The notes beneath the pieces were generated by a model, which saw only the letters and a program-made list of their open reading frames with translations, was not told where the DNA came from and did not search any database. The position numbers and the translations under genes are program-made. Below, one piece after another: positions 3,370-59,095 of a stretch of DNA of 59,152 bases; within the stretch, counting starts at the first letter, position 1, and each line of letters opens with the position of its first letter. Source of the DNA: Candidatus Yanofskybacteria bacterium RIFCSPHIGHO2_01_FULL_44_24 (GTDB lineage: Bacteria; Patescibacteriota; Minisyncoccia; 2-02-FULL-40-12; GWA2-44-9); assembly GCA_001794215.1 (NCBI GenBank), contig MGJK01000018.1, forward strand, positions 1 through 59,152, read 5' to 3'.

Positions 3370-3510
3370 GAAGGTGACAGATAGCCGATGCGACGATAGG
3401 GGCGAATAATTGAAAGAAAAGATACGAAGCCTCGTCTTTAATTGTAAGGTATACGAGAGCGAATGTCATTAGATAACTATCAACATTTTTGATATGATAT
3501 AGAAGAAGAT

Positions 3511-4830
3511 TTGACCGCGCTTAAGCACAAAAAAACGGCCCCATTCATCGCCGCCATAGTCTTATGGGTATTTTTCGTTTTTTTCTGTACGGCATCCGCG
3601 GCTACGTCCACCCAAGAGGAGATCGCCGAAAAGCAAAGACAAATAGAGGAAATACAGAAACAAATAGAGGCCTACCAGCTTCAGGTAGATACTACCCGCT
3701 CGAAATCAAGGACATTAGAAAATGAGATCGGCGGTTTGAACGCCAAAATAAGCCAGCTGACCCTTGAGATAAGGGGCCTTGAGCTTTCCATCAACAAAAC
3801 CAGTCTCGAGATCAACGATACCGAAGCAAAGATAGGGGATGCCTCCACTAAAATCGGAAAACACAAAAACGCCCTCGCCCAATTTATTAAGATCCTTCAC
3901 GAAGCCGATCAGAAAACTCTTACCGAAGTATTGCTGAACAATCCGACGCTGTCTAATTTTTTCAATAATTTAAACAGCATTCAGGTTACTCAAAATAATT
4001 TAGGAAATACGATTCAGAACATAAAAACGCTTAAAATTAGCTTGGAAGAGTACCAAGCCGACCTGGAAGATAAGAAATCGGATCTTGAAAGATTAAAAAG
4101 GGTCGAGGACATAGAAAAAAGCAACCTCAACAAAAATAAATCCGACAAAAATAAACTTCTTAAAGACACCAAAGGCCAAGAGTCCAAATTCCAAGAGTTA
4201 ATCAAGAAATCGCAAAAAGACATAGAGGCTATCCGAAGCCAGGTTACGTATCTTCAACAATACGGAGTCACGGCCGAAGATGCAGTTAAATACGGCCAAT
4301 TGGCGGCGATAGCCACGAGCATAAGGCCCGCTTTCCTGATCGCTATTTTGGAAATAGAGTCCGGATTAGGAAGAAATGTCGGCACGGGTAACTGGTTAAA
4401 TGACATGTATGAATGCTACCGAAGACTTGGTAAATTATCGCGAGCCGAAGCTGAGAAGAAGGCATTCTTTCAGATAGTAGAACAGCTTGGCCTTGATCCT
4501 AATTCGGTCAAAGTTTCAAGAGAGCCCAACTACGGCTGTGGAGGCGCCTTGGGTCCGGCCCAATTTCTTCCTTCTACCTGGCTCGGATATGCAGAAAGAG
4601 TAGCTCGTCTAACCGGCAATAACCCTCCGAATCCTTGGAATATTGAAGACGCTTTCATGGCGGCGGCAATTAAATTAGCCGACGGAGGAGCTACATCAAA
4701 AGATAAAACCGGCGAGACCCGGGCTGCCAAGGCATATATCAGCGGCCGGCCCACCTGTACTTCAAGCATCTGCAACTATTACTCAAACGCCGTTCTCCGC
4801 AAGGCATCGGAGATAGAAAAGAATCTATAA
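3511..4830 (+). CDS. secreted coiled-coil protein with C-terminal MltB/SLT_2-like lytic transglycosylase domain
   Basis: TTG start and a signal-like N-terminus. About 230 aa of heptad-rich coiled coil. C-terminal motifs LEIESGLGRN and GPAQFLPSTW are typical of MltB-type lytic transglycosylases. Confidence 0.8.
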   Translation: MTALKHKKTAPFIAAIVLWVFFVFFCTASAATSTQEEIAEKQRQIEEIQKQIEAYQLQVDTTRSKSRTLENEIGGLNAKISQLTLEIRGLELSINKTSLEINDTEAKIGDASTKIGKHKNALAQFIKILHEADQKTLTEVLLNNPTLSNFFNNLNSIQVTQNNLGNTIQNIKTLKISLEEYQADLEDKKSDLERLKRVEDIEKSNLNKNKSDKNKLLKDTKGQESKFQELIKKSQKDIEAIRSQVTYLQQYGVTAEDAVKYGQLAAIATSIRPAFLIAILEIESGLGRNVGTGNWLNDMYECYRRLGKLSRAEAEKKAFFQIVEQLGLDPNSVKVSREPNYGCGGALGPAQFLPSTWLGYAERVARLTGNNPPNPWNIEDAFMAAAIKLADGGATSKDKTGETRAAKAYISGRPTCTSSICNYYSNAVLRKASEIEKNL

Positions 4831-4917: not shown

Positions 4918-4955
4918 ACCCCTACCCTTTATGATATATCATAAAGGGTAGGGGT
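4918..4955. repeat. PAL24 palindrome copy 1 (core CCCTTTATGATATATCATAAAGGG at 4925-4948, extended to 38 bp by ACCCCTA/TAGGGGT arms)
   Basis: Perfect inverted repeat read directly from the sequence. Intergenic, downstream of the 3511-4830 gene. Confidence 0.9.
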
Positions 4956-8097: not shown

Positions 8098-9252
8098 GTG
8101 AACAAGGTGAAAAGTCAATCAAAAACAATATATGTCGCCATGTCTGGCGGAGTGGATTCGAGCGTTGCGGCGGCATTACTCAAAAAACAAGGCTATAACG
8201 TAGTCGGGGTTTTTATGAAGCCGTGGCAGCCTTCGGCTTCAAATTCTAAATCCCAAATCCGAAATTCTAAACAAATTCTAAATCCCAAATCCGAAATTCT
8301 AAACGGGGAACTCTGTCTATGGAAGCAGGACAGAGAGGATGCCATGCGGGCGGCGGCGGTATTGGATATACCGCTTTTGACTTGGGATTTTTCAAAAGAA
8401 TACAAAAAAGAAGTGGGAGATTATATGATCCGGGAATATAGAGCCGGCCGGACGCCGAATCCGGATGTAATGTGCAATAAGGAAATCAAATTTGGCCTGT
8501 TTCTGAAGAGGGCTTTAAGGGAGGGAGCGGACTTTATTGCTACGGGACACTACGTGCGGCTAAAGCCGCAATTTCCAATTTCCAATTTTCAATTTTCAAG
8601 GAAACCACAGACTGGATTCAGACTTCTGCAAGCGATAGACAAGAATAAAGATCAGTCGTATTTCCTATGGACCTTGACCCAGGCGCAACTGAAGCATTGT
8701 TTGTTTCCGATAGGGGATTATGTGAAGCCGGAAGTAAGGAAAATGGCCAAGAAATTCGGACTGCCTAACCATGCTAAAAAAGACAGCCAGGGAGTATGCT
8801 TTATCGGGCCGTTAGATATGAAAGAATTTCTCAAAAAATATATTAGACCCAAGAAGGGCCAAATAATAGACAAGGAAGGTACCGTCATCGGGGAACATGA
8901 TGGAGCCTTTTATTATACCATCGGCCAAAGACACGGACTGGATATAAAAAACGGCCAAGGACCATACTATGTAATCGCAAAGAATTTAAAGAAAAACATT
9001 ATCTATGTCGGTAAAGACAAAGATTTAACAACGAAGAAGGCCCATGTCTCAGGCATAAATTGGACCAACTCTCGTATTAAATTACCGACTAAGATAGACG
9101 TGAAGGTAAGATACAGAGCCAAATCAGAAACGGCTAACTTATCTAAAAGAGGGGATTTGGAATTCAGAAAACCAATTCGAGCCATTACTCCCGGCCAATC
9201 AGCCGTTTTCTATAAAGGCGAGGAACTTGTCGGAGGGGGGATTATCGACTAA
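8098..9252 (+). CDS. mnmA: tRNA-specific 2-thiouridylase MnmA carrying two repeat-derived insertions
   Basis: PP-loop SGGVDSS. Also GHYVR, KDQSYFLW and GVCFIGP (second catalytic Cys region). GTG start. Confidence 0.9.
   Translation: MNKVKSQSKTIYVAMSGGVDSSVAAALLKKQGYNVVGVFMKPWQPSASNSKSQIRNSKQILNPKSEILNGELCLWKQDREDAMRAAAVLDIPLLTWDFSKEYKKEVGDYMIREYRAGRTPNPDVMCNKEIKFGLFLKRALREGADFIATGHYVRLKPQFPISNFQFSRKPQTGFRLLQAIDKNKDQSYFLWTLTQAQLKHCLFPIGDYVKPEVRKMAKKFGLPNHAKKDSQGVCFIGPLDMKEFLKKYIRPKKGQIIDKEGTVIGEHDGAFYYTIGQRHGLDIKNGQGPYYVIAKNLKKNIIYVGKDKDLTTKKAHVSGINWTNSRIKLPTKIDVKVRYRAKSETANLSKRGDLEFRKPIRAITPGQSAVFYKGEELVGGGIID
8241..8304 (+). repeat. perfect 2 x 32-bp tandem repeat (AAATTCTAAATCCCAAATCCGAAATTCTAAAC) inside mnmA
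   Basis: 8241-8272 is identical to 8273-8304. The two copies are translated in different frames as NSKSQIRNSKQ and ILNPKSEILN. Confidence 0.95.
8569..8600 (+). repeat. AT-rich oligomer array (CAATTTC/CAATTTT units) inside mnmA
   Basis: CAATTTCCAATTTCCAATTTTCAATTTTCAAG encodes QFPISNFQFS. It is the reverse-orientation relative of the AAATTC/GAAAATTG family. Confidence 0.85.
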
Positions 9253-12447: not shown

Positions 12448-12612
12448 ACCAGGTAGTGAAAGTTCCGATTGCCTCAAGGCTTCTCGAAAAAACTTTCAAT
12501 TTAGCCAAGCCCTACTTTACCAAAAATACCAGGATAGTACTTATCTTTGGCAATGAAGCCATTCGGAACCTCTACTACCTGGCATATCCATAAAGTATAC
12601 AACACTTTATGG

Positions 12613-12652
12613 AAATTCTAAATTCTAATATCCAAACTCTAAACAACTCTAA
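12613..12652. repeat. AT-rich oligomer array (AAATTCTAAA type), intergenic
   Basis: GAAATTCTAAATTCTAATATCCAAACTCTAAACAACTCTAA. Confidence 0.8.
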
Positions 12653-13114: not shown

Positions 13115-14647
13115 ATGTTTTCAAGTTTGAATCCGCTGATAGCGGCAGTTTCGGCTTTGCTTCCAGGCTTGATAATCGGTTACCTCGTCAGACAGCTGAT
13201 AGTAAGCAGGCGAATCAGCGCCGCCGAATCTCGGGCTGAGTCTCTTCTCAATGAAGCAAAATCAAAGTCTCAGGACATTCTCCTTGAATCTAAAAACAAG
13301 GCTTTTAAGGTACTCGAAGATGCCAAGAAAGAGGAAAAAGAAAGGCATTCCCAATTAGCCAGGATAGAAAACCTGCTCACTAAAAAAGAAGATGAGCTCG
13401 AAGCCAAGCACCGGGAGGTTTCGAGTGAGAAAAACACCCTGAAAACCAAAATGGAGGAAGTGGATGCCCTGCGTGTTACCCTCCAGAATGAGAAAGCAAG
13501 GCACGTCAGCGAATTAGAAAGGGTAGCCGGACTCAGCAAAGACAAAGCTAAAGCCGAACTCGTTTCCGCCTTAGAAGACGAATACAAAGACGATCTTTAT
13601 CAAAGAATAAAGAAGCTGGAACAGGGCAATAGAGATGAACTTGATAAAAAGGCTCGTGAAATTTTAACCTTGGCTATCCAGAGATTTGCCTCATCCCACA
13701 TCGCCGATGCCACCACCACCGTAGTCAACCTGCCCTCAGATGAAGTAAAGGGTAAGATCATCGGAAAAGAGGGAAGAAATATTAAAACTATCGAACGCTT
13801 AACCGGCGTAGACGTAATCATAGACGATACCCCCGAAGCATTGGTGGTATCCGGATTCGACCCGGTCAGAAGACAGATAGCAAAGTTAGCCATCGAAAAA
13901 TTGATAGCCGACGGACGTATTCACCCGGCAAAGATAGAAGAATTGGTTGAAAAGGCTAAAAATGAAATAAATGAAAAAATGAAAGAAGCAGGGGAGGCTG
14001 CACTTTTTGAAACGGGCATCGGACCGGTAGACCAGCGCCTTGTCTATCTTTTGGGCCGCTTAGCTTTCAGGACAAGCTTCGGACAGAATGTCCTTCTTCA
14101 TTCGATCGAAATGGCCCATGTCGCCGGAATGCTTGCGGCGGAACTTGGAGCTGACGTTGGCGTAGCCAAAAAAGGCGCCTTGTTCCATGACATTGGAAAA
14201 GCAGTGGATCACGAAGTGCAAGGCACGCATGTAGAGATAGGCAGAAAAATCCTCCAGAAATTCGGTATGGATGACAAGGTCATAAAGGCCATGGAAGCCC
14301 ATCACGAAGAATACCCGTATGTGACCCTGGAATCCCGCATAGTCCAGACAGCCGATGCCATATCGGGCGGAAGGCCGGGTGCCAGAAAAGATACGGTTGA
14401 AATATACTTAAAGAGGCTCGAAGACCTCGAAAGAATCGCCGGGTCATTCGGTGGCGTTGAGAAATCTTATGCAATTCAGGCCGGCAGAGAAATGAGAATA
14501 TTCGTTACTCCTACTCAAATTGACGATTTGCAGGCTATCAAATTGGCAAAGGATATAGCCAAGAAGATAGAAGAGGAAATGAAGTACCCCGGAGAAATCA
14601 AGGTAAATGTCATCAGAGAAACTCGAGCCATAGAGTACGCCAGGTAG
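13115..14647 (+). CDS. rny: ribonuclease Y
   Basis: N-terminal TM helix, coiled coil, KH motif GKIIGKEGRNIKTIE and HD domain LFHDIGKA. Confidence 0.92.
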   Translation: MFSSLNPLIAAVSALLPGLIIGYLVRQLIVSRRISAAESRAESLLNEAKSKSQDILLESKNKAFKVLEDAKKEEKERHSQLARIENLLTKKEDELEAKHREVSSEKNTLKTKMEEVDALRVTLQNEKARHVSELERVAGLSKDKAKAELVSALEDEYKDDLYQRIKKLEQGNRDELDKKAREILTLAIQRFASSHIADATTTVVNLPSDEVKGKIIGKEGRNIKTIERLTGVDVIIDDTPEALVVSGFDPVRRQIAKLAIEKLIADGRIHPAKIEELVEKAKNEINEKMKEAGEAALFETGIGPVDQRLVYLLGRLAFRTSFGQNVLLHSIEMAHVAGMLAAELGADVGVAKKGALFHDIGKAVDHEVQGTHVEIGRKILQKFGMDDKVIKAMEAHHEEYPYVTLESRIVQTADAISGGRPGARKDTVEIYLKRLEDLERIAGSFGGVEKSYAIQAGREMRIFVTPTQIDDLQAIKLAKDIAKKIEEEMKYPGEIKVNVIRETRAIEYAR

Positions 14648-14649
14648 CC

Positions 14650-14965
14650 TCTCGACCCCGATTCTCTCGAGGCACCGCATAGATACACTCAGCCTTGACT
14701 TATTCGAGGCACGCCATAAAGACGCTCCACTTTAACCCATGCAAGGCACGGCGTAAATTTCTCACTGAAATTTCGCCTTTTACCTGCCTGCCGGCAGGCA
14801 GGCTCGGCCCAGTCGGCCTCCGTAAATCCTTTCATGGTCTAAAGCTTCGCTTGGTGTTTGAACAAAAAGCCTGCGGGAATACTCTCATGAACAAAGAGCG
14901 GGGTCTCAAATGCTTCAGAATGACAAGGGGCTTCGCCTTAGTTTCCCTTAGTCGGATTAAGGCTC
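14650..14965 (-). repeat. R1 intergenic repeat, copy A (reverse orientation), interrupted by PAL20
   Basis: The reverse complement of 14803-14880 matches GGATTTACGGAGGCCGACTGGGCCGAG and upstream units of copies B and C. It contains a covarying hairpin at 14750-14777. Confidence 0.8.
14783..14802. repeat. PAL20 perfect palindrome CCTGCCTGCCGGCAGGCAGG inserted in R1 copy A
   Basis: Copies B and C read CCGAG-TAAAAGG without interruption. Copy A has the palindrome (plus one G) at exactly this junction. Confidence 0.9.
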
Positions 14966-22818: not shown

Positions 22819-22916
22819 AAATTGAAATTAGGTTGCCTTTTAGCCCTCCTCATATTATCATAAAGACAAGTTTTAGCAGTGTTAAATAAAATCGCGGGTA
22901 TCGTATAATGGTAGTA

Positions 22917-22936
22917 CCTGCCTGCCGGCAGGCAGG
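22917..22936. repeat. PAL20 perfect palindrome CCTGCCTGCCGGCAGGCAGG at the anticodon-arm position of the outer tRNA
   Basis: Identical 20-mer to 14783-14802, with the same TA...C flanks. Confidence 0.9.
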
Positions 22937-22966
22937 CGGCAACAATTTATAATATGGATTGAGTGA

Positions 22967-23037
22967 GCGGGATTCGTATATCGGTAATACATGAGTTTTC
23001 CAAACTCAAGAGACGGGTTCGACTCCCGTATCCCGCT
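22967..23037 (+). tRNA. tRNA-Gly (anticodon UCC)
   Basis: Hand-folded cloverleaf. Acceptor GCGGGAT/ATCCCGC, D stem GTAT/ATAC, anticodon stem TGAGT/ACTCA with loop TTTCCAA, T arm ACGGG-TTCGACT-CCCGT, discriminator T. No encoded CCA. Confidence 0.9.
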
Positions 23038-23097
23038 CAGTCAATCTATGTTCAGTTAGACTGTCGGCCGGGGTTCGATTCCCCGTACCCGCTCTAT

Positions 23098-28283: not shown

Positions 28284-28327
28284 TAAACCGCCGCCCTTTA
28301 TGATATATCATAAAGGGCGGCGGTTTA
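28284..28327. repeat. PAL24 palindrome copy 2 (44-bp perfect palindrome; core 28294-28317)
   Basis: TAAACCGCCG-CCCTTTATGATATATCATAAAGGG-CGGCGGTTTA. Intergenic, downstream of the PBP1A gene. Confidence 0.9.
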
Positions 28328-42860: not shown

Positions 42861-42884
42861 CCCTTTATGATATATCATAAAGGG
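42861..42884. repeat. PAL24 palindrome copy 3 (core only)
   Basis: CCCTTTATGATATATCATAAAGGG. The flanks are not complementary here. Confidence 0.9.
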
Positions 42885-42902: not shown

Positions 42903-43045
42903 CTTGGTTTATGGAAATTTTTGTTTAAACGATAAGCGAAGCCTTAACCCGATGAAGGGATTTACGGAGGCCGACTGGGCCGAGTAAAAGGCAAGATTTT
43001 AGCAAAAATCTATGCCGTGCCCTGAAATGGGTTAAGGCGAAGCAC
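42903..43045 (+). repeat. R1 intergenic repeat, copy B
   Basis: 42952-43026 is identical (75/75 by my alignment) to 58999-59073. Hairpin at 42990-43016. Confidence 0.85.
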
Positions 43046-43047
43046 CT

Positions 43048-43503
43048 TTATTCGGACTTAATAGAGACCTTGAACTCTGCTTTGATTTCCGGAGCAAGTT
43101 CAACTTCAATCATATGTTCGCCTAATTTTTTGATATGCTCGCCGTGTTCCTTAAAATCAACCGAGTCAGCTTCCACCTTGGCACCAACGGCTTTGGATAA
43201 TTCTTGGGCAACTTCTTCCTTGGTCAGAGAAGAATAGAGCTTGCCGGCTTTACTGGCCTTTTTGGTAAATTCTAAAACGAGATCCCTGACTCTTCCAACC
43301 GCCTCCAGGGCCTTCTCTTTTTCCATCTTAAGAGTCGCCTCAAGCTTTTTCTTAAGAGCGCTGACCTCGTTTAAGGCTCCATCCGTAGCTAACTTAGCCA
43401 TTTTTCTCGGCAGTAAATAGTTCTTTCCGTAGCCATCGGAAACATTCTTAACATCTCCGATCTGGCCATAACCTTTTATGTTTTGCAGTAAAATGATCTT
43501 CAT
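43048..43503 (-). CDS. rplI: 50S ribosomal protein L9
   Basis: MKIILLQNIKGYGQIGDVKNVSDGYGKNYLLPRKMA. Confidence 0.9.
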   Translation of the reverse strand: MKIILLQNIKGYGQIGDVKNVSDGYGKNYLLPRKMAKLATDGALNEVSALKKKLEATLKMEKEKALEAVGRVRDLVLEFTKKASKAGKLYSSLTKEEVAQELSKAVGAKVEADSVDFKEHGEHIKKLGEHMIEVELAPEIKAEFKVSIKSE

Positions 43504-43634
43504 AAATTCTAAGCACTAAGCACTAAATTCTAAACAAATTCAAAATCCTAAACCCAAAAGCTTTAAACTGTTTTAATATTGGAGTTTCGATCATTTGACG
43601 TTGTTTAGTATTTAGGTATTAGAATTTAGAGTTT
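43504..43634. repeat. AT-rich oligomer arrays in inverted arrangement abutting the rplI start codon
   Basis: Left arm AAATTCTAAGCACTAAGCACTAAATTCTAAACAAATTCAAAATCCTAAACCC. Right arm GTTTAGTATTTAGGTATTAGAATTTAGAGTTT. Confidence 0.8.
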
Positions 43635-43641
43635 ACTTGAT

Positions 43642-46946: not shown

Positions 46947-48038
46947 CTAACTAAACCATTTACCTATCTCATTCGGGCCAACTTTGGCTCTGGACATTAT
47001 TTCTCTTCTCTTTCTCAGCATCTTAGGAAAAAATCTGAGAAAATTGGGAACCTCTGAAAGAACCCGGGGTTCAAAAATTAATATATAGCCGAACAGCATA
47101 ATCTCCCGTTTCAAGATATATGGCAAGTCTTTCAAGATGTTTATTATATAGTCATTTTTGAGAATTGTAAAACGGGTATTGCGCCAATCGAGGCCCCTTT
47201 TTCTCATCGGAACTTCCCTTCTGATTCTTATGAAGTCCATCCAGTTTTTACGCAGTGTTTTGGTGGTCTGCCGATCATGCCAAGCAATCACTGCCGGCGC
47301 AAAGATCTGTTTCCAGCCGAATAAATTCATCCGCCAGGCCAAATCAAAATCATCGCCGTACCAGAAATAATCATGGTCAAAGATTTCATTAGTGGGTAGC
47401 TGGTAGTGGGTAGTTGGTAGTGGAATCCTGCACGATTCAAGAGCGCTTTTTCTGAAAAACGGCGCCGCTCCTTCGACTCCGAATATCTCCACCGATCCGC
47501 CGGACGGCGGATCATACTGGCCGATATCTTTTTCCCCATGGCCCATATTTACCAGCCTGCGAGACTTAAAGATCTTAAATCCAAAAGTGTCGATAATTGT
47601 AGGTTGTAGGTTGTAGGTTGTAGGTTGTAGGTCAGTTAATTCATACCTGTAAATCTTTGCCTGTAAGGCGCCGATTTTTTCATCACGTTCCATGACCTCG
47701 ACGGCATTTTTAATAAAATCTTTATCGAGTATCACATCGACTGCCACTGCTAAGACGTATTTACAGCTTGAACGTTTCAATAATTCTTCCTGTCCCGGCC
47801 ACATCCCTAAATTTGATTTGGATTTCACCAAATCAAATTTAGGAAATTTAGAATTTAAAATTTTAAATTTAAAATTCTCGATAATGCCGATGGTATTATC
47901 GAGCGATCCGTTGTCGAGAATATTAAATTCTATAAGCTCGTGCGGGTAAGTCTGGGCTAAAACTGCGTCCAAAAAATGGCGGATGTATTTTTCACCGTTG
48001 AGAACAACGAGGTTAATCGTAACTTTAAGCATTGACAT
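46947..48038 (-). CDS. GT2-family glycosyltransferase with three repeat-derived insertions
   Basis: INLVVLNGEKYIRHFLDAVLAQTY and ILDNGSLDNT. The insertions encode KFKILNSKFPKFD, LQPTTYNLQPT and PTTHYQLPT. Confidence 0.8.
   Translation of the reverse strand: MSMLKVTINLVVLNGEKYIRHFLDAVLAQTYPHELIEFNILDNGSLDNTIGIIENFKFKILNSKFPKFDLVKSKSNLGMWPGQEELLKRSSCKYVLAVAVDVILDKDFIKNAVEVMERDEKIGALQAKIYRYELTDLQPTTYNLQPTIIDTFGFKIFKSRRLVNMGHGEKDIGQYDPPSGGSVEIFGVEGAAPFFRKSALESCRIPLPTTHYQLPTNEIFDHDYFWYGDDFDLAWRMNLFGWKQIFAPAVIAWHDRQTTKTLRKNWMDFIRIRREVPMRKRGLDWRNTRFTILKNDYIINILKDLPYILKREIMLFGYILIFEPRVLSEVPNFLRFFPKMLRKRREIMSRAKVGPNEIGKWFS
47392..47423. repeat. GTGGGTAG/TGGTAG oligomer array inside GT2 CDS
   Basis: GTGGGTAGCTGGTAGTGGGTAGTTGGTAGTGG. 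Confidence 0.8.
47597..47631. repeat. 5 x 7-bp perfect tandem repeat (TTGTAGG) inside GT2 CDS
   Basis: Read directly from the sequence. The unit length is not divisible by 3. Confidence 0.95.
47807..47879. repeat. AT-rich oligomer array with a 13-bp inverted repeat inside GT2 CDS
   Basis: AAATTTGATTTGG-ATTTCAC-CCAAATCAAATTT followed by AGGAAATTTAGAATTTAAAATTTTAAATTTAAAATTC. Confidence 0.8.
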
Positions 48039-50246: not shown

Positions 50247-51357
50247 AATTCGCCTGTTCAAAAAACCTCTCCGTGAAACCCTTCCAACTATACCTCTTAA
50301 CAAATTTTGGTCCTTCGGATTTTATTTTCTGGATTTTTTGGCCGTCGGTCAGAGCCTGCCTTACGGACCTTATAATCCCATCCGCGCCCCCGTCTTTTGA
50401 ATAAAAAGCGTAATCTCCAAAAAGTTCATGGCCTAATTCATTATCCATGATCACCGGTGAAACTCCAAACGCCAATGCCTCCATCGGAGGCAAGCCGAAT
50501 GCCTCCCTGTCCGAAACATAAACCAATGCCCTGGCTCCGGTGTATAATTTTTCGATATCTTCTCGTTTTTCCAGATAATCAAAATATATGATTCTCTCGC
50601 TCTTTAGTTTTTGATTCATAATCTCGACTAATTCGCGGATAATAGCAGGCCTATATTTATCGGTCCCAACCAGGATCAGTTTTAAATCCGGAAACTCATA
50701 AGCTATCTTCTGAAAGGCTAATATGGTTTCCCGGGCGTGACGACGCGGGAACATTTGGCCCACATACAGGATGTACGTGGAATTTTCAATTTTCAATTTA
50801 GAATTTTCAATATTTTGATCCGAGCTGATTCCAAGATGAGAAACAAAAATCCGTTTAGGATTAATCCAATATAGATTCGCCACTTCCTTCTTAGAAGTTT
50901 CAGAAATAGCAAGAATTTTTGTGGCAAACCAAGCCGCCCAGTTCGTAAATAACCGATAAGACAATCTGTATCTAAGCGGAAGATTCCCCTGCTTATACTC
51001 ATAATAAACGTCAGGTGTTAAGACCACGATGGATTTGCGAAGATAAAGCGGAGGCAACTGATAGGCCGGGAAGAACATCCAATCAATGCGGTCAATCATC
51101 GCCCGCAATGGCATCAGAAGATGGTAATAAATGTTAAACGAGGGAACTCCAGAAACCCGAATTATGAATTTTGAATTATGAATTTTGAAAAAATCGTCAT
51201 CCGGAATTCTTTTCTTAAAATACAGATATAATTTGTATTTTTTCTGCCACTCAGGATTAGCCGCATACTCTTTGAGCAAATTTAAAGTTATCTGGCCTAT
51301 CCCCCAGCGCGACTTTGAATCCTCTAAGTTTTCGCATTCGATACCGATTTTAAGCAT
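50245..51357 (-). CDS. GT4-family (GT-B) glycosyltransferase with repeat-derived insertions
   Basis: REAFGLPPMEALAFGVSPV (E-x7-E). Insertions at 50779-50816 (IENSKLKIENS) and 51160-51187 (2 x 14 bp). Confidence 0.8.
   Translation of the reverse strand: MLKIGIECENLEDSKSRWGIGQITLNLLKEYAANPEWQKKYKLYLYFKKRIPDDDFFKIHNSKFIIRVSGVPSFNIYYHLLMPLRAMIDRIDWMFFPAYQLPPLYLRKSIVVLTPDVYYEYKQGNLPLRYRLSYRLFTNWAAWFATKILAISETSKKEVANLYWINPKRIFVSHLGISSDQNIENSKLKIENSTYILYVGQMFPRRHARETILAFQKIAYEFPDLKLILVGTDKYRPAIIRELVEIMNQKLKSERIIYFDYLEKREDIEKLYTGARALVYVSDREAFGLPPMEALAFGVSPVIMDNELGHELFGDYAFYSKDGGADGIIRSVRQALTDGQKIQKIKSEGPKFVKRYSWKGFTERFFEQAN
50779..50816. repeat. AT-rich oligomer array inside GT4 CDS
   Basis: GGAATTTTCAATTTTCAATTTAGAATTTTCAATATTTT. 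Confidence 0.8.
51160..51187. repeat. 2 x 14-bp perfect tandem repeat (AATTATGAATTTTG) inside GT4 CDS
   Basis: 51160-51173 is identical to 51174-51187. Confidence 0.9.
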
Positions 51358-51472
51358 AAACTCTAAATCCTAATGTCTAAATTCTAAACAATATCCAATA
51401 TTAAAACTCTAATGTTCGAAATTTAATATCTTGAGATTTGAATTTTGTATTTGTTTAGAAATTAGGATTTCG
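51358..51472. repeat. AT-rich oligomer arrays in inverted arrangement, abutting the GT4 start codon
   Basis: Left arm AAACTCTAAATCCTAATGTCTAAATTCTAAAC. Right arm GTTTAGAAATTAGGATTTCG. Confidence 0.8.
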
Positions 51473-51475
51473 TGC

Positions 51476-52387
51476 TTAGGATTTTACTCGCCCCATTCTG
51501 TTCATATACCAATCGAAAACTCCATCTAAGATCGCCCGCGACTCCTCTTCGTTAATGTTTAATCCCATCTTCAAAAATTGTTTTAAAATTATTACCCAGC
51601 TCCATGGCCAGACCGCTACCTTGATATACCACGGACCGTTTTTCCGGTTAAAATACAGGGCATTCCGATAGTGATATCTCAATAAAAGCGGTGAGCCAAG
51701 TTTTTTGGTTGTGGCCGAAACATTATGGTGTATCATAACCTTATCTGTGATTGAGATGGGGATTTTAGCTCTTCTAGCCCTGACGCAAAAGTCGGCATCC
51801 TCAAAATACAAAAAATATTTTTCATCAAGCTCGCCGATTTTATCAAAGGCATCTTTCGATATCACCATCGCCCCGCCAACAGCATAGAATTTGGAATTCC
51901 TGCCCGTCCGGCAGGCGGGTGGAATTTGGAATTTGGAATTTTCATAATCATGTCGAAGAGTCGGTTTCAGCCACTCTATTCTACCGCAATAAGCCGTCCT
52001 GTCCTCCTCCACCAAGGGTAACCCTACTATGCCCCCTGAAGACCCTAATTTGACCCTTAAAGAGGCTATGAAGTCCTCCCCTACCCAAGTATCGTTATTC
52101 AATAAGAGCACCCAATCTGCCCTGTTTTCCAGGGCCTGACCTATACCCACATTGTTACCCCCCGAGAACCCTAAATTCTTCTTATTTCTTACTACAGATG
52201 CTACAAAGGGCATCTTTGCAAAGATGCCCTTTGTAGCTGTTTGCAAACTTATAAAATCTGCTCCATCCGAAGCGTTGTCCACAATAACTATTTCAAAATC
52301 CCGATCCGTTTGTTCATAAAGAGACCTCAAAAGCTTAGTCGTATTTTCCGAGCCGTTATAGTTGATTGTGATGATAAAAAGTTTCAA
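51476..52387 (-). CDS. GT2-family glycosyltransferase (rhamnosyltransferase-like) with a composite repeat insertion
   Basis: FIITINYNGSENT, IVDNASDG, LNNDT and YFEDADFC. Confidence 0.8.
   Translation of the reverse strand: MKLFIITINYNGSENTTKLLRSLYEQTDRDFEIVIVDNASDGADFISLQTATKGIFAKMPFVASVVRNKKNLGFSGGNNVGIGQALENRADWVLLLNNDTWVGEDFIASLRVKLGSSGGIVGLPLVEEDRTAYCGRIEWLKPTLRHDYENSKFQIPPACRTGRNSKFYAVGGAMVISKDAFDKIGELDEKYFLYFEDADFCVRARRAKIPISITDKVMIHHNVSATTKKLGSPLLLRYHYRNALYFNRKNGPWYIKVAVWPWSWVIILKQFLKMGLNINEEESRAILDGVFDWYMNRMGRVKS
51887..51943. repeat. composite insertion inside GT2 CDS: GGAATTT units flanking a PAL20-like GC hairpin
   Basis: GAATTTGGAATT-CCTGCCCGTCCGGCAGGCGGG-TGGAATTTGGAATTTGGAATTTTC. 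It encodes ENSKFQIPPACRTGRNSKF. Confidence 0.8.
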
Positions 52388-52945: not shown

Positions 52946-54109
52946 TTATACTCTGTCAATAAGTTTGAGGATTTCTTTTCTGAATCGCTCGCTCGAAAAT
53001 TTTTGGGCGTGCATCTTGATCGCTTCAGAGCTATATGAGGGGTAGTTTCCGTTTAACCTTCTCACCCCATCCGCCAAAGCTTCCGGAATTGGATCATCAA
53101 AGAATTCTCCGGTTACGCCCTCAACGACTGTTTCCGTCGCTCCACCTTTACGCAAGGCCAAGACGGGCTTGCCGAACGACATGGCTTCGATAGGCGTTAT
53201 GCCGAAGTCTTCCTCTTGTGGCATTATAAATGCCCGGCAATTTTGATAGTAGGCTCCCAGCTCTTCATCCGGTATAAATCCGAGCATTTTTATGTTTTTG
53301 AATCCTGATATCCGATTTTGGATACTTTCTTTTTCGGGGCCGGTTCCGATAATAACAAGGGGCAGCCTGAGCTTTGAAAATGCCTCCACGGCAACGTCTA
53401 TGTTTTTATGTTTATACAGCCGGCTAACAATCAGATAGTAGTTGCCTAAATTTTTAATTTTTAATTTAAAATTTTCATTGAATTCATTGATTTTATAATT
53501 TTCAGACATTGGATCATTGTAGTTTGATTGAAAATTGAAAATTGAAAATTGAAAATTACTGACCGGAGGATATATCACGACCGCCTCTTTTCTGTAATAC
53601 TTCCCTATCCTCTCGCGAACATGTTCGGATATCGCAATAAATTCATCAACTCGGTCGGCCGTCTGCCGATCCCATATCCTCAGAAAATGCTTGGCCATTC
53701 TATTAAAAAAGTTATTAGTCGTAAATTGTTGGTTGTAGGTTGAATTTAGGTCCCATATTTGCCTCATGGGGCTGTAGCAATAGCATATATGCCAGGTTTT
53801 GGGTTTTAAAACTAATCCTTTAGAAAAATTAACCGAAGAAGATATCACGAGGTCATAGTCTGAAAGATCAAATGATTCTACGGCAACGGGCATTATCAGC
53901 GCAAGATATTTATAGAACTTAGTAATGAAGGGGGGTTTATTCAAAAAACTCGGCCGGATATCGGCATCGGGTAGAAAGTGACGGATAAATTTTTTGCTGG
54001 CAAAAAGGGTATAAATCGGTGCTTCCGGAAATATTTTATGCAATTCAATAAGCACGCGCTCGGCGCCGCCAAGAGTGTTCAGCCAATCATGAACCAAAGC
54101 AATACGCAT
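52946..54109 (-). CDS. GT4-family (GT-B) glycosyltransferase with an about 40-aa repeat-derived insertion
   Basis: Start set at MRIALVHDW. EEDFGITPIEAMSFGKPVLA (E-x7-E). Confidence 0.8.
   Translation of the reverse strand: MRIALVHDWLNTLGGAERVLIELHKIFPEAPIYTLFASKKFIRHFLPDADIRPSFLNKPPFITKFYKYLALIMPVAVESFDLSDYDLVISSSVNFSKGLVLKPKTWHICYCYSPMRQIWDLNSTYNQQFTTNNFFNRMAKHFLRIWDRQTADRVDEFIAISEHVRERIGKYYRKEAVVIYPPVSNFQFSIFNFQSNYNDPMSENYKINEFNENFKLKIKNLGNYYLIVSRLYKHKNIDVAVEAFSKLRLPLVIIGTGPEKESIQNRISGFKNIKMLGFIPDEELGAYYQNCRAFIMPQEEDFGITPIEAMSFGKPVLALRKGGATETVVEGVTGEFFDDPIPEALADGVRRLNGNYPSYSSEAIKMHAQKFSSERFRKEILKLIDRV
53447..53557. repeat. AT-rich repeat block inside GT4 CDS, including 4 x 7-bp TTGAAAA (53528-53555)
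   Basis: Encodes SNFQFSIFNFQSNYNDPMSENYKINEFNENFKLKIKN. Confidence 0.9.
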
Positions 54110-54727: not shown

Positions 54728-55729
54728 CTACCTTTTCGCAACCACATTGCGCTTGTAGGCGTCGAGGTTCTGGAGAACAATGCCTGTCCCCCGAGCGACA
54801 CAGAATAACGGATCATCAGCTATTGAAGCCGGAACGCCGGTAATACGATTGATGAGGACATCTATATTCTTCAAAAGTGCGCCTCCGCCTGAAATTATAA
54901 TCCCCTTGTCCATAATATCAGAACAAAGTTCCGGAGGAGTAACTTCAAGAACATTCTTCACAATCTGAACAATCTCCCGAAGCTGTTCGCTTAAAGCTTC
55001 GGTAATTTCATTGGAACCGACCTCAATCGTCCTCGGAAATCCGGTAGCCAAATCCCTTCCTTTGATATTTATTTTTTCCTCTTCCTGCTCTTTAGTGGCA
55101 CTTCCGATGCTGACTTTTATAAGCTCGGCCGTTCTTTCTCCGATGGCCAAGCCATGTTTCTTTTTGATATATTCAACAATCGCCTGATCAAGCTTGTTCC
55201 CGCCTATTCTAACGGAAGACCAAGTTACGATGCCTCCTAAGGATATAACCGCTAACTCAGTCGTTCCGCCGCCGATATTTAAAATCATATTTCCGGCCGG
55301 ACTGTTAATCGGAATTTTGGCTCCTATCGCCGCAAGCACCGGCTCCTTTACCAAATAGACCGCCTTGGCTCCGGCGTTCAATGCTGCTTCGATAACTGCT
55401 CTTTTTTCCGTCGAAGTTATACCGGCAGGTACGGAAATCAAAACCTCCGGTTTCACAAAGCTCATAAAGCCGGCTGCCTTTTTTATAAAATACCGAAGCA
55501 TCGCTCCGGTTACACGGTAATCCGCAATCGCGCCATCTACCAGCGGTTTTGATATAACGATACTATCCGGCGTTCGGCCGATCATTTCTTTGGCCGAAGC
55601 TCCAACAGAAATTATTTTGTTGTCTAAAACCGAAATCGCCACCACCGATGGCTCATTTACGACTATCCCCTTCTTGGGTATAAATACCACCGTATTGGTG
55701 GTACCGAGGTCTATACCAATCTTAGCCAA
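54728..55729 (-). CDS. mreB: rod-shape-determining actin homolog MreB
   Basis: IGIDLGTTNT, NIGGGTTE and IISGGGALL. Apparent TTG start. Confidence 0.92.
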   Translation of the reverse strand: MAKIGIDLGTTNTVVFIPKKGIVVNEPSVVAISVLDNKIISVGASAKEMIGRTPDSIVISKPLVDGAIADYRVTGAMLRYFIKKAAGFMSFVKPEVLISVPAGITSTEKRAVIEAALNAGAKAVYLVKEPVLAAIGAKIPINSPAGNMILNIGGGTTELAVISLGGIVTWSSVRIGGNKLDQAIVEYIKKKHGLAIGERTAELIKVSIGSATKEQEEEKINIKGRDLATGFPRTIEVGSNEITEALSEQLREIVQIVKNVLEVTPPELCSDIMDKGIIISGGGALLKNIDVLINRITGVPASIADDPLFCVARGTGIVLQNLDAYKRNVVAKR

Positions 55730-55867
55730 AATATTAAATCCGAAATACGAAATCCTAAATCCTAAACAAAGCCCGAAAATCTTAAATTCTAATTTCCAAA
55801 CCTTTTGAAATTTAGAAAATTTGCATTTCGATATTGTTTCGAATCTCGAATTTCGTATTTCGAATTT
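55730..55867. repeat. AT-rich oligomer arrays filling the murA-mreB intergenic region
   Basis: Left side AAATCCGAAATACGAAATCCTAAATCCTAAAC...AAATTCTAATTTCC. Right side CGAATCTCGAATTTCGTATTTCGAATTT in inverted orientation. Confidence 0.8.
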
Positions 55868-58796: not shown

Positions 58797-58840
58797 CAAT
58801 CCGCCACCCTTTATGATATATCATAAAGGGTGGCGGATTG
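58797..58840. repeat. PAL24 palindrome copy 4 (44-bp perfect palindrome; core 58807-58830)
   Basis: CAATCCGCCA-CCCTTTATGATATATCATAAAGGG-TGGCGGATTG. Confidence 0.9.
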
Positions 58841-59095
58841 AGACAGGCCTTGGCTTATGAGAGGATTTGCATAGGTTCCTATTTATCAAGCGTAGCCGTA
58901 ACCCATGAAAGGATTCACGAAAAGCCATAACGAAGCCTTGGCTTATTAGAGGATTTGCGCAGGCTTTTTGTTCAAACATCAAGCGCAGCCTTAACCCTAT
59001 GAAGGGATTTACGGAGGCCGACTGGGCCGAGTAAAAGGCAAGATTTTAGCAAAAATCTATGCCGTGCCCTGAACGGGTTAATTCGAAGCGTTTTT
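58841..59095 (+). repeat. R1 intergenic repeat, copy C (two tandem about 90-nt units plus hairpin tail)
   Basis: Units start with GCCTTGGCTTATGAGAGGATTTGC (58848) and GCCTTGGCTTATTAGAGGATTTGC (58937). The tail is identical to copy B. Hairpin at 59037-59063. Confidence 0.85.

Follow-up and report, generated by a model that had tools for sequence, protein, structure and literature searches.

A perfect 20-bp palindrome, CCTGCCTGCCGGCAGGCAGG (hereafter X), occurs in a stretch of 59,152 nucleotides from Candidatus Yanofskybacteria bacterium RIFCSPHIGHO2_01_FULL_44_24 (contig MGJK01000018.1, hereafter the window), and letter for letter in the genomes of many other bacteria and in phage contigs. X is considered here to be a non-coding, non-autonomous mobile insertion module of which the 20-bp palindrome alone is the conserved unit, a reading to which a probability of roughly 0.55 is given. 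That X is a discrete insertion which spreads horizontally is held with high confidence, and the spread across phyla is the main new result, one that the window sequence alone could not show. The constant 20-mer, the pairs of filled and empty sites, the nesting of copies, the decay products and the footprint of selection, taken together, argue for a selfish insertion module.

The window holds two exact copies of X where none is expected (Table 1), and both carry TA on the left flank and C on the right, as the original prediction had stated and exact matching confirmed. A third copy is absent from the window even when up to 3 mismatches are allowed, and none of 100 shuffles gave any match. The palindrome is predicted to form a hairpin whose 8-bp stem is closed by a loop of CCGG (-8 kcal/mol as DNA), and all its reading frames are free of stop codons. 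Neither the sequence of X nor the peptide LPAGRQ was found in the literature searched, and tRNA was the sole match in a scan with Rfam.

The first copy interrupts a repeat, R1, which is present three times in the window. Copy A, which is on the minus strand, runs GGGCCGAG-X-TAAAAGGC, whereas GGGCCGAGTAAAAGGC is uninterrupted in copies B (42977-42992) and C (59024-59039), and the MAFFT alignment of the three copies has a gap of exactly 20 columns in B and C opposite the X of A. The insertion boundary had been predicted to within 1 nt, and the ambiguity of one G is indeed real. The RNase Y protein encoded beside copy A was found, residue-for-residue identical, on contigs of four independent Rifle-type aquifer metagenome assemblies, and 4/4 assemblies of this population carry X at the junction of copy A. 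Hence, X in R1 is not an assembly artefact. As single-stranded DNA, R1 copy B (42930-43046) has a predicted folding energy of -27 kcal/mol (z = -5.65 against shuffled controls), with a long closing stem and two inner hairpins. No match to R1 was found in Rfam, and the repeat is probably a MITE-like (miniature inverted-repeat transposable element) or structured-RNA repeat of this lineage.

The second copy interrupts a tRNA-Gly. ARAGORN and Rfam detect one tRNA in the window, tRNA-Gly(tcc) at 22967-23038, and X lies 30 nt upstream of it. The 23 nt that precede X (22894-22916), GCGGGTATCGTATAATGGTAGTA, are the 5' start of tRNA-Gly(TCC), and a metagenome scan with these 23 nt gave 27 loci, all running straight on into an intact tRNA-Gly. 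In 21 of the 27 the insertion point reads CGGCAGTTTTCCAAACTG and the continuation CGGCAGTTTTCCAAACTGTCGGCCGGGGTTCGATTCCCCGTACCCGCTC is that of tRNA-Gly(TCC), sharing the next 5 nt with the window, which itself reads ...GGTAGTA-X-CGGCA-acaatttat... and continues into unrelated sequence after CGGCA. Sequence comparison thus places X, as an exact insertion of 20 bp, after tRNA position 24 and before position 25, in the 3' strand of the D stem. The site shows no target duplication, and the remaining tRNA beyond 5 nt (CGGCA) has been lost. The original prediction was right about the interruption of a tRNA-Gly but not about the replacement of its anticodon arm, as X is located in the D stem of a truncated pseudogene. 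ARAGORN calls no gene at the pseudogene (22894-22941), with X present or removed. The empty state of this site is taken from the tRNA-fragment scan and not from an orthologous locus; an orthologous empty locus was sought through the upstream gene, whose nearest relatives do not exceed 58% identity and are not accompanied by a tRNA.

A third site of known empty state comes from phages. In the tRNA-Met of two phage loci, L149 and L126, X is present in the variable loop (...CCACGAGG-X-TCGCCGGTTCGAATCC...), and the syntenic relative L195 (~76% nucleotide identity) has the same tRNA-Met without X and with no duplication. The predicted cloverleaf of the L149 gene is kept, with X as an extra arm. In L126, 11 nt have been deleted beside X, and this deletion illustrates how interrupted tRNAs can decay to fragments. 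Empty sites have thus been found among the R1 paralogues, the tRNA-Gly genes and the syntenic phage tRNA-Met, and X behaves at them as the discrete insertion that was originally proposed. The target-site duplications that were sought along with them are missing from all three resolved sites. Pairs of heptamers on either side of X had suggested a 7-bp duplication as a separate candidate; it was rejected, as the three sites lack one and these heptamers keep the phase of arrays that were already present. Rather, X enters DNA as an exact 20-bp addition without target-site duplication.

Exact matches to the 20-mer were counted in other genomes, as the original prediction had suggested, using one genome per species (596 Gb) with taxon names taken from record titles. 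X is present in at least 120 loci, each of a different species genome, against a chance expectation of ~0.5 matches in 596 Gb at uniform composition; a few more chance matches are expected in very GC-rich genomes, and most carriers have 30-48% GC. The carriers among the matches listed span ~11 phylum-level groups, which include many lineages of Patescibacteria, or the candidate phyla radiation (CPR), Bacteroidota, Omnitrophota, Planctomycetota and uncultured Gammaproteobacteria, along with delta/Thermodesulfobacteriota, Thermodesulfovibrionales, Bdellovibrionales, the Planctomycetes-Verrucomicrobia-Chlamydiae (PVC) group/Verrucomicrobia, Elusimicrobia, Ignavibacteria and Chloroflexi. By its nearest protein relatives, the bacterium of the window is itself CPR/Parcubacteria-like. 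At least seven carriers are cultured, and those named are Bacteroidota (Winogradskyella echinorum, Flagellimonas yonaguniensis, Longitalea luteola, Flavivirga sp., Aquiflexum lacus, Agriterribacter humi and Aestuariivivens sediminis). Bacillota, Actinomycetota, Enterobacteria, Cyanobacteria and Archaea do not appear among the matches listed (at least 120 genomes), which is suggestive at most. In the IMG/VR collection, X was found in 35 viral stretches, and one phage contig of 29.5 kb has at least six copies. Altogether, X stands at ~200 unrelated sites. A non-coding 20-mer that is letter-perfect across phyla billions of years apart cannot be vertically inherited, and its identity between distant phyla and its presence on phage contigs imply that X or its mobiliser moves horizontally.

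X has no conserved surroundings. The flanks of all X sites, compared by blastn, are unrelated and reveal no larger shared element around X. When the 3748 open reading frames (ORFs) of the X loci were clustered all-against-all, the top family was present in 6 of the 120 genome loci (8 loci including viral contigs). The recurrent families checked by Pfam, all of a housekeeping kind, are ABC ATPase, ClpP, ParB, SmpB and family 2 glycosyltransferase (GT2), and solely structural and lysis genes were seen in the copy-rich phage contig. As the flanks are unrelated and no gene family recurs nearby, the 20-mer is the entire conserved unit; and as it has no coding capacity and no linked gene, it would have to be mobilised in trans. 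Genes of PF05635 (23S-rRNA-intervening-sequence / bAvd-like four-helix-bundle) adjoin X in loci L050, L108, L129 and L151, and in L050 two of them (2365-2739 and 3426-3797) lie on either side of X at 3400. With 4 of ~155 loci, PF05635 is probably not above background; its taxon range resembles that of X.

The insertion sites are not random. A tRNA or tRNA-like context was found for 10 of 167 X sites, while tRNA genes account for 0.31% of the bases of this DNA (19-fold, p = 1.7e-10). The majority lie in the D loop or D stem, in either case on the 3' side (GGTA^GAGC, TAGA^GC, GTA^C), and besides these X was found once where the anticodon loop begins and twice within the variable loop. Likewise, 13 of 164 X sites (7.9%) lie in period-7 tandem arrays as against 35 of 3080 random intergenic positions (1.1%; odds ratio 7.5, p = 3.6e-7). 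Among the short tandem periods of the carrier loci, 7 is much the most frequent, and other periods are rare at X. X is also nested at the centre of other X-like copies (L018, L042, L021 and L028). The base to the left is A at 44% of the sites and the base to the right is T at 40%, with both at 24%; a left T and a right A are depleted to 9% each. Directly abutting inverted flanks are not enriched at X sites. The preferred targets of X are thus positions next to A/T, the D, anticodon and variable loop regions of tRNAs, heptamer arrays, R1 and its own centre. It was also observed that X-interrupted tRNAs elsewhere are mostly 5' halves which end near the anticodon arm and often lie just 5' of an intact tRNA, as the pseudogene of the window does, for example L015 4021-4075, L037 2105-2165, L099 5969-6030, L106 3678-3750 and L156 495-560. 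Their shortness may stem from deletions that followed insertion, of the kind present in L126, or from the way X is inserted.

Protein-coding genes receive X less often. Long ORFs contain 23% of the X sites and 73% of random positions, so that the sites are mostly intergenic, and this bias marks the footprint of purifying selection. In-frame copies are present in an FtsK-like protein, GatB, RfbB and others, with 7 of 8 translated as x-LPAGRQ-x, and alignment to solved structures places them as additional loop residues. No frame of X has a stop codon, and copies of 3n length can therefore survive in protein loops. X copies decay by point mutation and adjacent deletion, and in the variants with 1-3 mismatches the substitutions are uncompensated.

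The coding copy of the window itself is 21 nt long. This variant, CCTGCCCGTCCGGCAGGCGGG, had been predicted as a GC hairpin lying in frame in a GT2 gene amid GGAATTT-type heptamers, and this was borne out: the ORF reads ...SKFQIPPACRTGRNSKF... (also given as ...NSKFQIPPACRTGRNSKF...) in frame across it. Among 29 aligned homologues the loop that bears the variant ranges from very short to more than 40 residues, and in several relatives it is occupied by peptides typical of translated heptamer arrays. The homologue P0164 has ACLPAGR in a different loop, and its DNA (L198 323-342) is an exact X. The GT2 protein gave no match against the PDB. The GT2 homologues of CPR show at least four hypervariable insertion hot spots, which hold low-complexity peptides (e.g. 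SGQAG, NTKYELRNT and ACLPAGR) that resemble translated heptamer arrays and GC palindromes; loops of CPR proteins may generally diversify by such insertions. Tandem heptamer arrays are likewise unusually common in the intergenic DNA of the window (AAATTCT/AAATCCC, AATTTCC, TTGTAGG, ATTGAAA and others), at 8241-8328, 8570-8609, 12610-12647, 43504-43635, 47583-47634, 50780-50811, 51358-51484, 53518-53557, 53705-53742 and 55729-55867.

X is accompanied by other palindromes. TCCGCCAGCTGGCGGA, a GC-rich perfect palindrome, occupies 8 sites in 7 unrelated carrier loci, and CCCGATAGCTATCGGG, also GC-rich and perfect, is found in 3 carrier loci. Both have unrelated flanks and carriers of different phyla, and they are sometimes located 10-50 nt from X, as if several palindromes accumulated at shared landing pads. 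Similarly, a phage hairpin repeat of ~60 nt (GACCCACCCTYG...CRAGGRTGGGG) holds at its centre either X or TCCGCCGCGGCGGA, copy by copy. The window has a further perfect palindrome of 24 nt, CCCTTTATGATATATCATAAAGGG, in four copies (4925-4948, 28294-28317, 42861-42884 and 58807-58830), two of which are just upstream of R1 copies B and C. In three of the four, the outer stems differ yet pair (ACCCCTA/TAGGGGT, CCGCCG/CGGCGG and CCGCCA/TGGCGG), which suggests a second family of palindromes, conserved in the core and variable in the stems.

Table 1. Features of the window and of other carrier loci that bear on X; positions are those of the window unless a locus number (L) is given.
Feature	Position	Strand	Remarks
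X copy 1	14783..14802	no strand (palindrome)	Exact, within R1 copy A; seen in four independent assemblies
X copy 2	22917..22936	no strand (palindrome)	Exact, between positions 24 and 25 of the tRNA-Gly(TCC) pseudogene by sequence comparison
R1 copy A (filled site)	~14700..14885	-	3' of the RNase Y gene 13115-14647; MAFFT alignment, RNase Y by Pfam
R1 copy B (empty site between 42984 and 42985)	42905..43050	+	Structured MITE-like element (probable); DNA fold z = -5.65
R1 copy C (empty site between 59031 and 59032)	58952..59100	+	Alignment with copies A and B
Truncated tRNA-Gly(TCC) pseudogene	22894..22941	+	23 nt of 5' tRNA, X, CGGCA; compared with 27 intact tRNA-Gly loci
Functional tRNA-Gly(tcc)	22967..23038	+	Uninterrupted; 25 nt 3' of the pseudogene; ARAGORN; Rfam RF00005, 61 bits
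21-nt degenerate X variant CCTGCCCGTCCGGCAGGCGGG	51899..51919	no strand	2 substitutions and 1 extra base relative to X
GGAATTT / AAATTCC heptamer tandem array holding the variant	51886..51942	no strand	In the GT2 hypervariable loop
GT2 glycosyltransferase gene, host of array and variant	51476..52387	-	Pfam PF00535, 1.3e-13; homologue alignment
TCCGCCAGCTGGCGGA loci	L011 3285-3345, L016 132-177, L040 2960 and 4466, L015, L032, L108, L110		
CCCGATAGCTATCGGG loci	L052, L062, L070		
~60-nt phage hairpin repeat	L145 (3006, 8915, 9001, 10422, 10518), L153 (48, 1537)		IMGVR_UViG_3300037242_000417

As to how X moves, its targets may share a tendency toward a single-stranded or extruded state. An enzyme acting in trans, encoded away from X, would insert it as a hairpin of single-stranded DNA, and phages are plausible carriers between hosts. 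A candidate would be an enzyme of the HUH/Y1 type, either a transposase or a nickase, that recognises hairpins and acts on single strands without leaving a duplication, comparable to those of IS200/IS605 and REP-RAYT. The lack of duplication and the hairpin nature of X fit HUH/Y1 single-strand chemistry, and they also fit an RNA-mediated route. Mobilisation in trans at the DNA level is an evenly balanced proposition, and the assignment of the mobilising enzyme to the HUH/Y1 class is a good deal less likely, with roughly one chance in several; a slightly smaller share of the weight goes to an RNA-mediated route, a small one to host enzymes only, and the remainder to some other enzyme.

Several observations weigh against a mobile module. 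No mobilising enzyme was found near X by the clustering of locus ORFs, and a Pfam scan of 20 of the 52 window ORFs (those of at least 120 aa) showed no transposase, integrase or reverse transcriptase; the scanned ORFs are ordinary chromosomal genes (RNase Y, L9, PriA, GltX, PBP1 and an ExoIII-like nuclease). Neither de novo insertion nor polymorphism within a population was seen, the R1 copy being present in 4/4 assemblies. X has no GTAG/CGTC head, and its sites share no constant target tetranucleotide of the IS200/IS605 kind. Targeting of hairpin apices, which many single sites had seemed to show on inspection, was rejected as a general rule, as 21% of the sites fall in hairpin loops when the flanks are folded with X deleted, compared with 24% of random intergenic positions. 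The 20 nt of X cannot hold a reading frame, and copies in coding sequence therefore need an extra base or other compensation. Moreover, the identity of a non-coding 20-mer across phyla would be hard to maintain for an ordinary transposon, and the public collections were searched for exact matches alone, which makes the count of at least 120 genomes a lower bound. The ultra-small mobile palindrome, one of the readings first offered for X, is nevertheless supported by the exact insertions, the empty sites, the nesting, the at least 120 species and the phage contigs. A broader version of this reading, put forward tentatively and below even odds, is that X and sister palindromes such as TCCGCCAGCTGGCGGA are products of an undescribed DNA-insertion process shared by several phyla (Patescibacteria, Bacteroidota, Omnitrophota, Planctomycetota and some Proteobacteria) and their phages. 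Here an enzyme that is conserved or shuttled horizontally (an HUH nickase, a reverse transcriptase or one of another family) would act on single-stranded loops, be they in tRNA genes, in heptamer arrays or in palindromes, and the process would possibly also seed the heptamer-plus-palindrome insertions in protein loops of CPR.

Movement through RNA, where the hairpin RNA of X would be reverse-spliced or ligated into RNA loops, copied by a reverse transcriptase and fixed by recombination, is an unlikely explanation. In its favour, the tRNA sites are at solvent-exposed parts of the folded molecule (in the D loop towards its 3' side, where the anticodon loop begins, or within the variable loop), their 19-fold enrichment suits insertion into abundant RNAs, the insertion is duplication-free as in retrohoming, and X in the variable loop is predicted to fold as an extra arm with the cloverleaf intact. 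Carrier lineages such as CPR, Omnitrophota, Bacteroidota and phages are also rich in retroelements such as diversity-generating retroelements. However, a large number of sites belong to MITE-like repeats and intergenic heptamer arrays that may not be transcribed, and neither the vicinity of X nor the 20 Pfam-scanned window ORFs revealed a reverse transcriptase. The cDNA copies of tRNAs should be 3'-biased, whereas the remnants seen are 5' halves; and as a perfect palindrome carries no strand information, its orientation relative to transcription is unreadable. Propagation by host enzymes only is improbable. According to it, a nuclease-resistant 20-nt hairpin oligonucleotide is freed from copies already present by hairpin or loop repair and sealed by DNA ligase into nicks or Okazaki junctions, where it sits as an extruded three-way junction; no dedicated transposase would be required and the process would work in any phylum. 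The exact and duplication-free insertion, the absence of an associated gene near X, the spread across phyla and phages, the stable hairpin (-8 kcal/mol as DNA) and the similar behaviour of several unrelated GC-rich palindromes in the same loci all agree with it. Yet every stable palindrome should then spread, but one exact 20-mer dominates, and Bacillota, Actinomycetota, Enterobacteria and Cyanobacteria are missing among the matches listed (at least 120), a restriction which argues, suggestively, for a lineage-limited factor. We also know of no precedent for the propagation of a hairpin by host enzymes only.

The perfect conservation of 20 bp across phyla and the mostly intergenic location would suit a functional cis element (a site recognised by a protein or a restriction-modification system, a site of recombination, or a hairpin that stabilises RNA or ends transcription) that is selected and spreads with transferred DNA, not by transposition of its own. 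The centre GCCGGC/CCGG and, with the A/T flanks, the inward ACCTGC motifs resemble restriction sites. This reading has little probability, as copies are found in tRNA fragments, nested in one another and in frame in the loops of GatB, RfbB, the FtsK-like protein and GT2; no T-run follows X, which is thus not an intrinsic terminator; the flanks are unrelated, so that X did not come with transferred neighbouring DNA; and the mutated copies are uncompensated. Being a recognition site, as was also proposed originally, could be a secondary property of X, but it cannot explain the copies in tRNA fragments or those in frame in housekeeping enzymes. A repair or template-switch scar, a further original suggestion, would have each copy made locally by snap-back synthesis or quasi-palindrome correction. 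X is indeed a perfect palindrome and is associated with slippage-prone heptamer arrays; but local template switching makes palindromes of local sequence, and a constant 20-mer at ~200 unrelated sites, against 0.5 by chance, would need a conserved cellular template containing CCTGCCTGCC, which leaves the scar very improbable. Palindromic linkers occur in some library chemistries, and an adapter, linker or assembly chimera was therefore weighed as well. It is scarcely credible, given that the assemblies containing X come from many different projects, were made with many assemblers and platforms and comprise isolate and long-read ones, that four independent assemblies of this population agree, and that mutated, nested and in-frame coding copies exist.

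Among known systems, the closest described to X are the small dispersed repeats SDR1-8 of Nostoc punctiforme and relatives, for which Elhai and colleagues reportedly proposed an RNA-mediated route in 2008. The SDRs are said in the same work to be hairpin-forming, 21-27 nt long and confined to one cyanobacterial subgroup. X is like them in its length of tens of nucleotides, its hairpin, its precise and discrete insertion and the lack of a linked gene, as well as in its presence in tandem heptamer arrays and mini-transposons (R1 being MITE-like) and its self-nesting. It differs in being identical over ~11 phylum-level groups and phage contigs, and in being a perfect palindrome of 20 nt, just under the SDR range, the two being compared by their descriptions. 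No cyanobacterium is among the matches listed (at least 120 carriers), which argues against X being a Nostoc SDR. Precise insertion has been reported for SDR5 into HIP1 (PMC4390886). The repetitive extragenic palindromic (REP) elements and REPINs are mobilised by RAYT (TnpA-REP) transposases of the HUH-Y1 class (PMC3116915, PMC3733652, PMC8266576). They resemble X as short (20-40 bp), extragenic, GC-rich and non-autonomous palindromes and, as is proposed for X, are moved in trans by an unlinked single-copy gene through single-strand chemistry with no target duplication expected. The palindromes of REPs, however, are imperfect and specific to a lineage, bear a GTAG/CGTC head and number hundreds in a genome, whereas X is perfect, headless, identical across phyla and apparently of low copy number (2 exact copies in 59 kb), and it enters tRNAs and coding sequences; instead of the conserved REP-type end, its flanks show merely the A/T bias. 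MITEs derive from a parent insertion sequence and have terminal inverted repeats around an internal region, with a target-site duplication at the borders; X has no internal region and no duplication at the three resolved sites, and blastn of its flanks gave no related longer element sharing its ends.

The HUH elements of the IS200/IS605 and Helitron/IS91 groups also leave no target duplication and have terminal hairpins, and the A/T bias in the flanks of X is reminiscent of Helitrons, whose insertions fall between A and T. These elements measure hundreds to thousands of bp, their left and right ends differ, and the target is usually a fixed oligonucleotide, all of which X is without. IS200/IS605 elements insert 3' of a fixed tetra- or pentanucleotide without duplication and have subterminal hairpins and a Y1 transposase. 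Of these features, X has the duplication-free insertion and the hairpin; a fixed target was not seen (A at -1, 44%), nor was a transposase nearby. Rickettsia palindromic elements (RPEs), reportedly described by Ogata and colleagues in 2000, are said to lie in frame in protein genes and in RNA genes. Like X, RPEs are palindromic selfish repeats tolerated in surface loops of coding genes, in frame, and in RNA genes; but they are 100-150 bp long, belong to one genus and are not perfect palindromes, so that the likeness is one of behaviour alone. RPEs are also mentioned elsewhere (PMC1779305). Short GC-rich hairpins are known from mitochondria as well, as in the repetitive hairpin-forming elements (RHEs) of sponges (PMC2800124). 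Both these and the GC clusters compared with them below are very short, GC-rich, without an encoded enzyme, and have repeatedly invaded AT-rich intergenic DNA, rRNA and tRNA genes and coding genes, as X has; they differ in being organellar, with a family per lineage. The GC clusters in question are those of yeast mitochondria, comparable short GC-rich hairpins. To our knowledge, no exact sequence of the mitochondrial GC clusters or RHEs is shared across distant lineages.

X behaves like one of the smallest mobile DNA elements known, and on the broader reading of a shared insertion process it would be the smallest. It must be written or moved by some shared agent, the identification of which would set the lower size limit of mobile DNA and could reveal a compact, sequence-defined insertion activity without target duplication. 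There are also consequences for the annotation of uncultured bacteria, as tRNA genes broken by X leave 5' halves that tRNA finders overlook, and X adds peptides of the LPAGRQ type to conserved enzymes. Tandem heptamer arrays are common to Beggiatoaceae, Cyanobacteria and Bacteroidetes with "no mechanism evident" (MacGregor, 2015; PMC4679880). X adds a second marker to this heptamer-array syndrome and extends it to CPR, Omnitrophota and Planctomycetota, joining arrays hitherto unexplained (PMC4679880) to a second and testable sequence feature. Finally, X is a ready marker for the exchange between phages and their hosts, for example in CPR bacteria.

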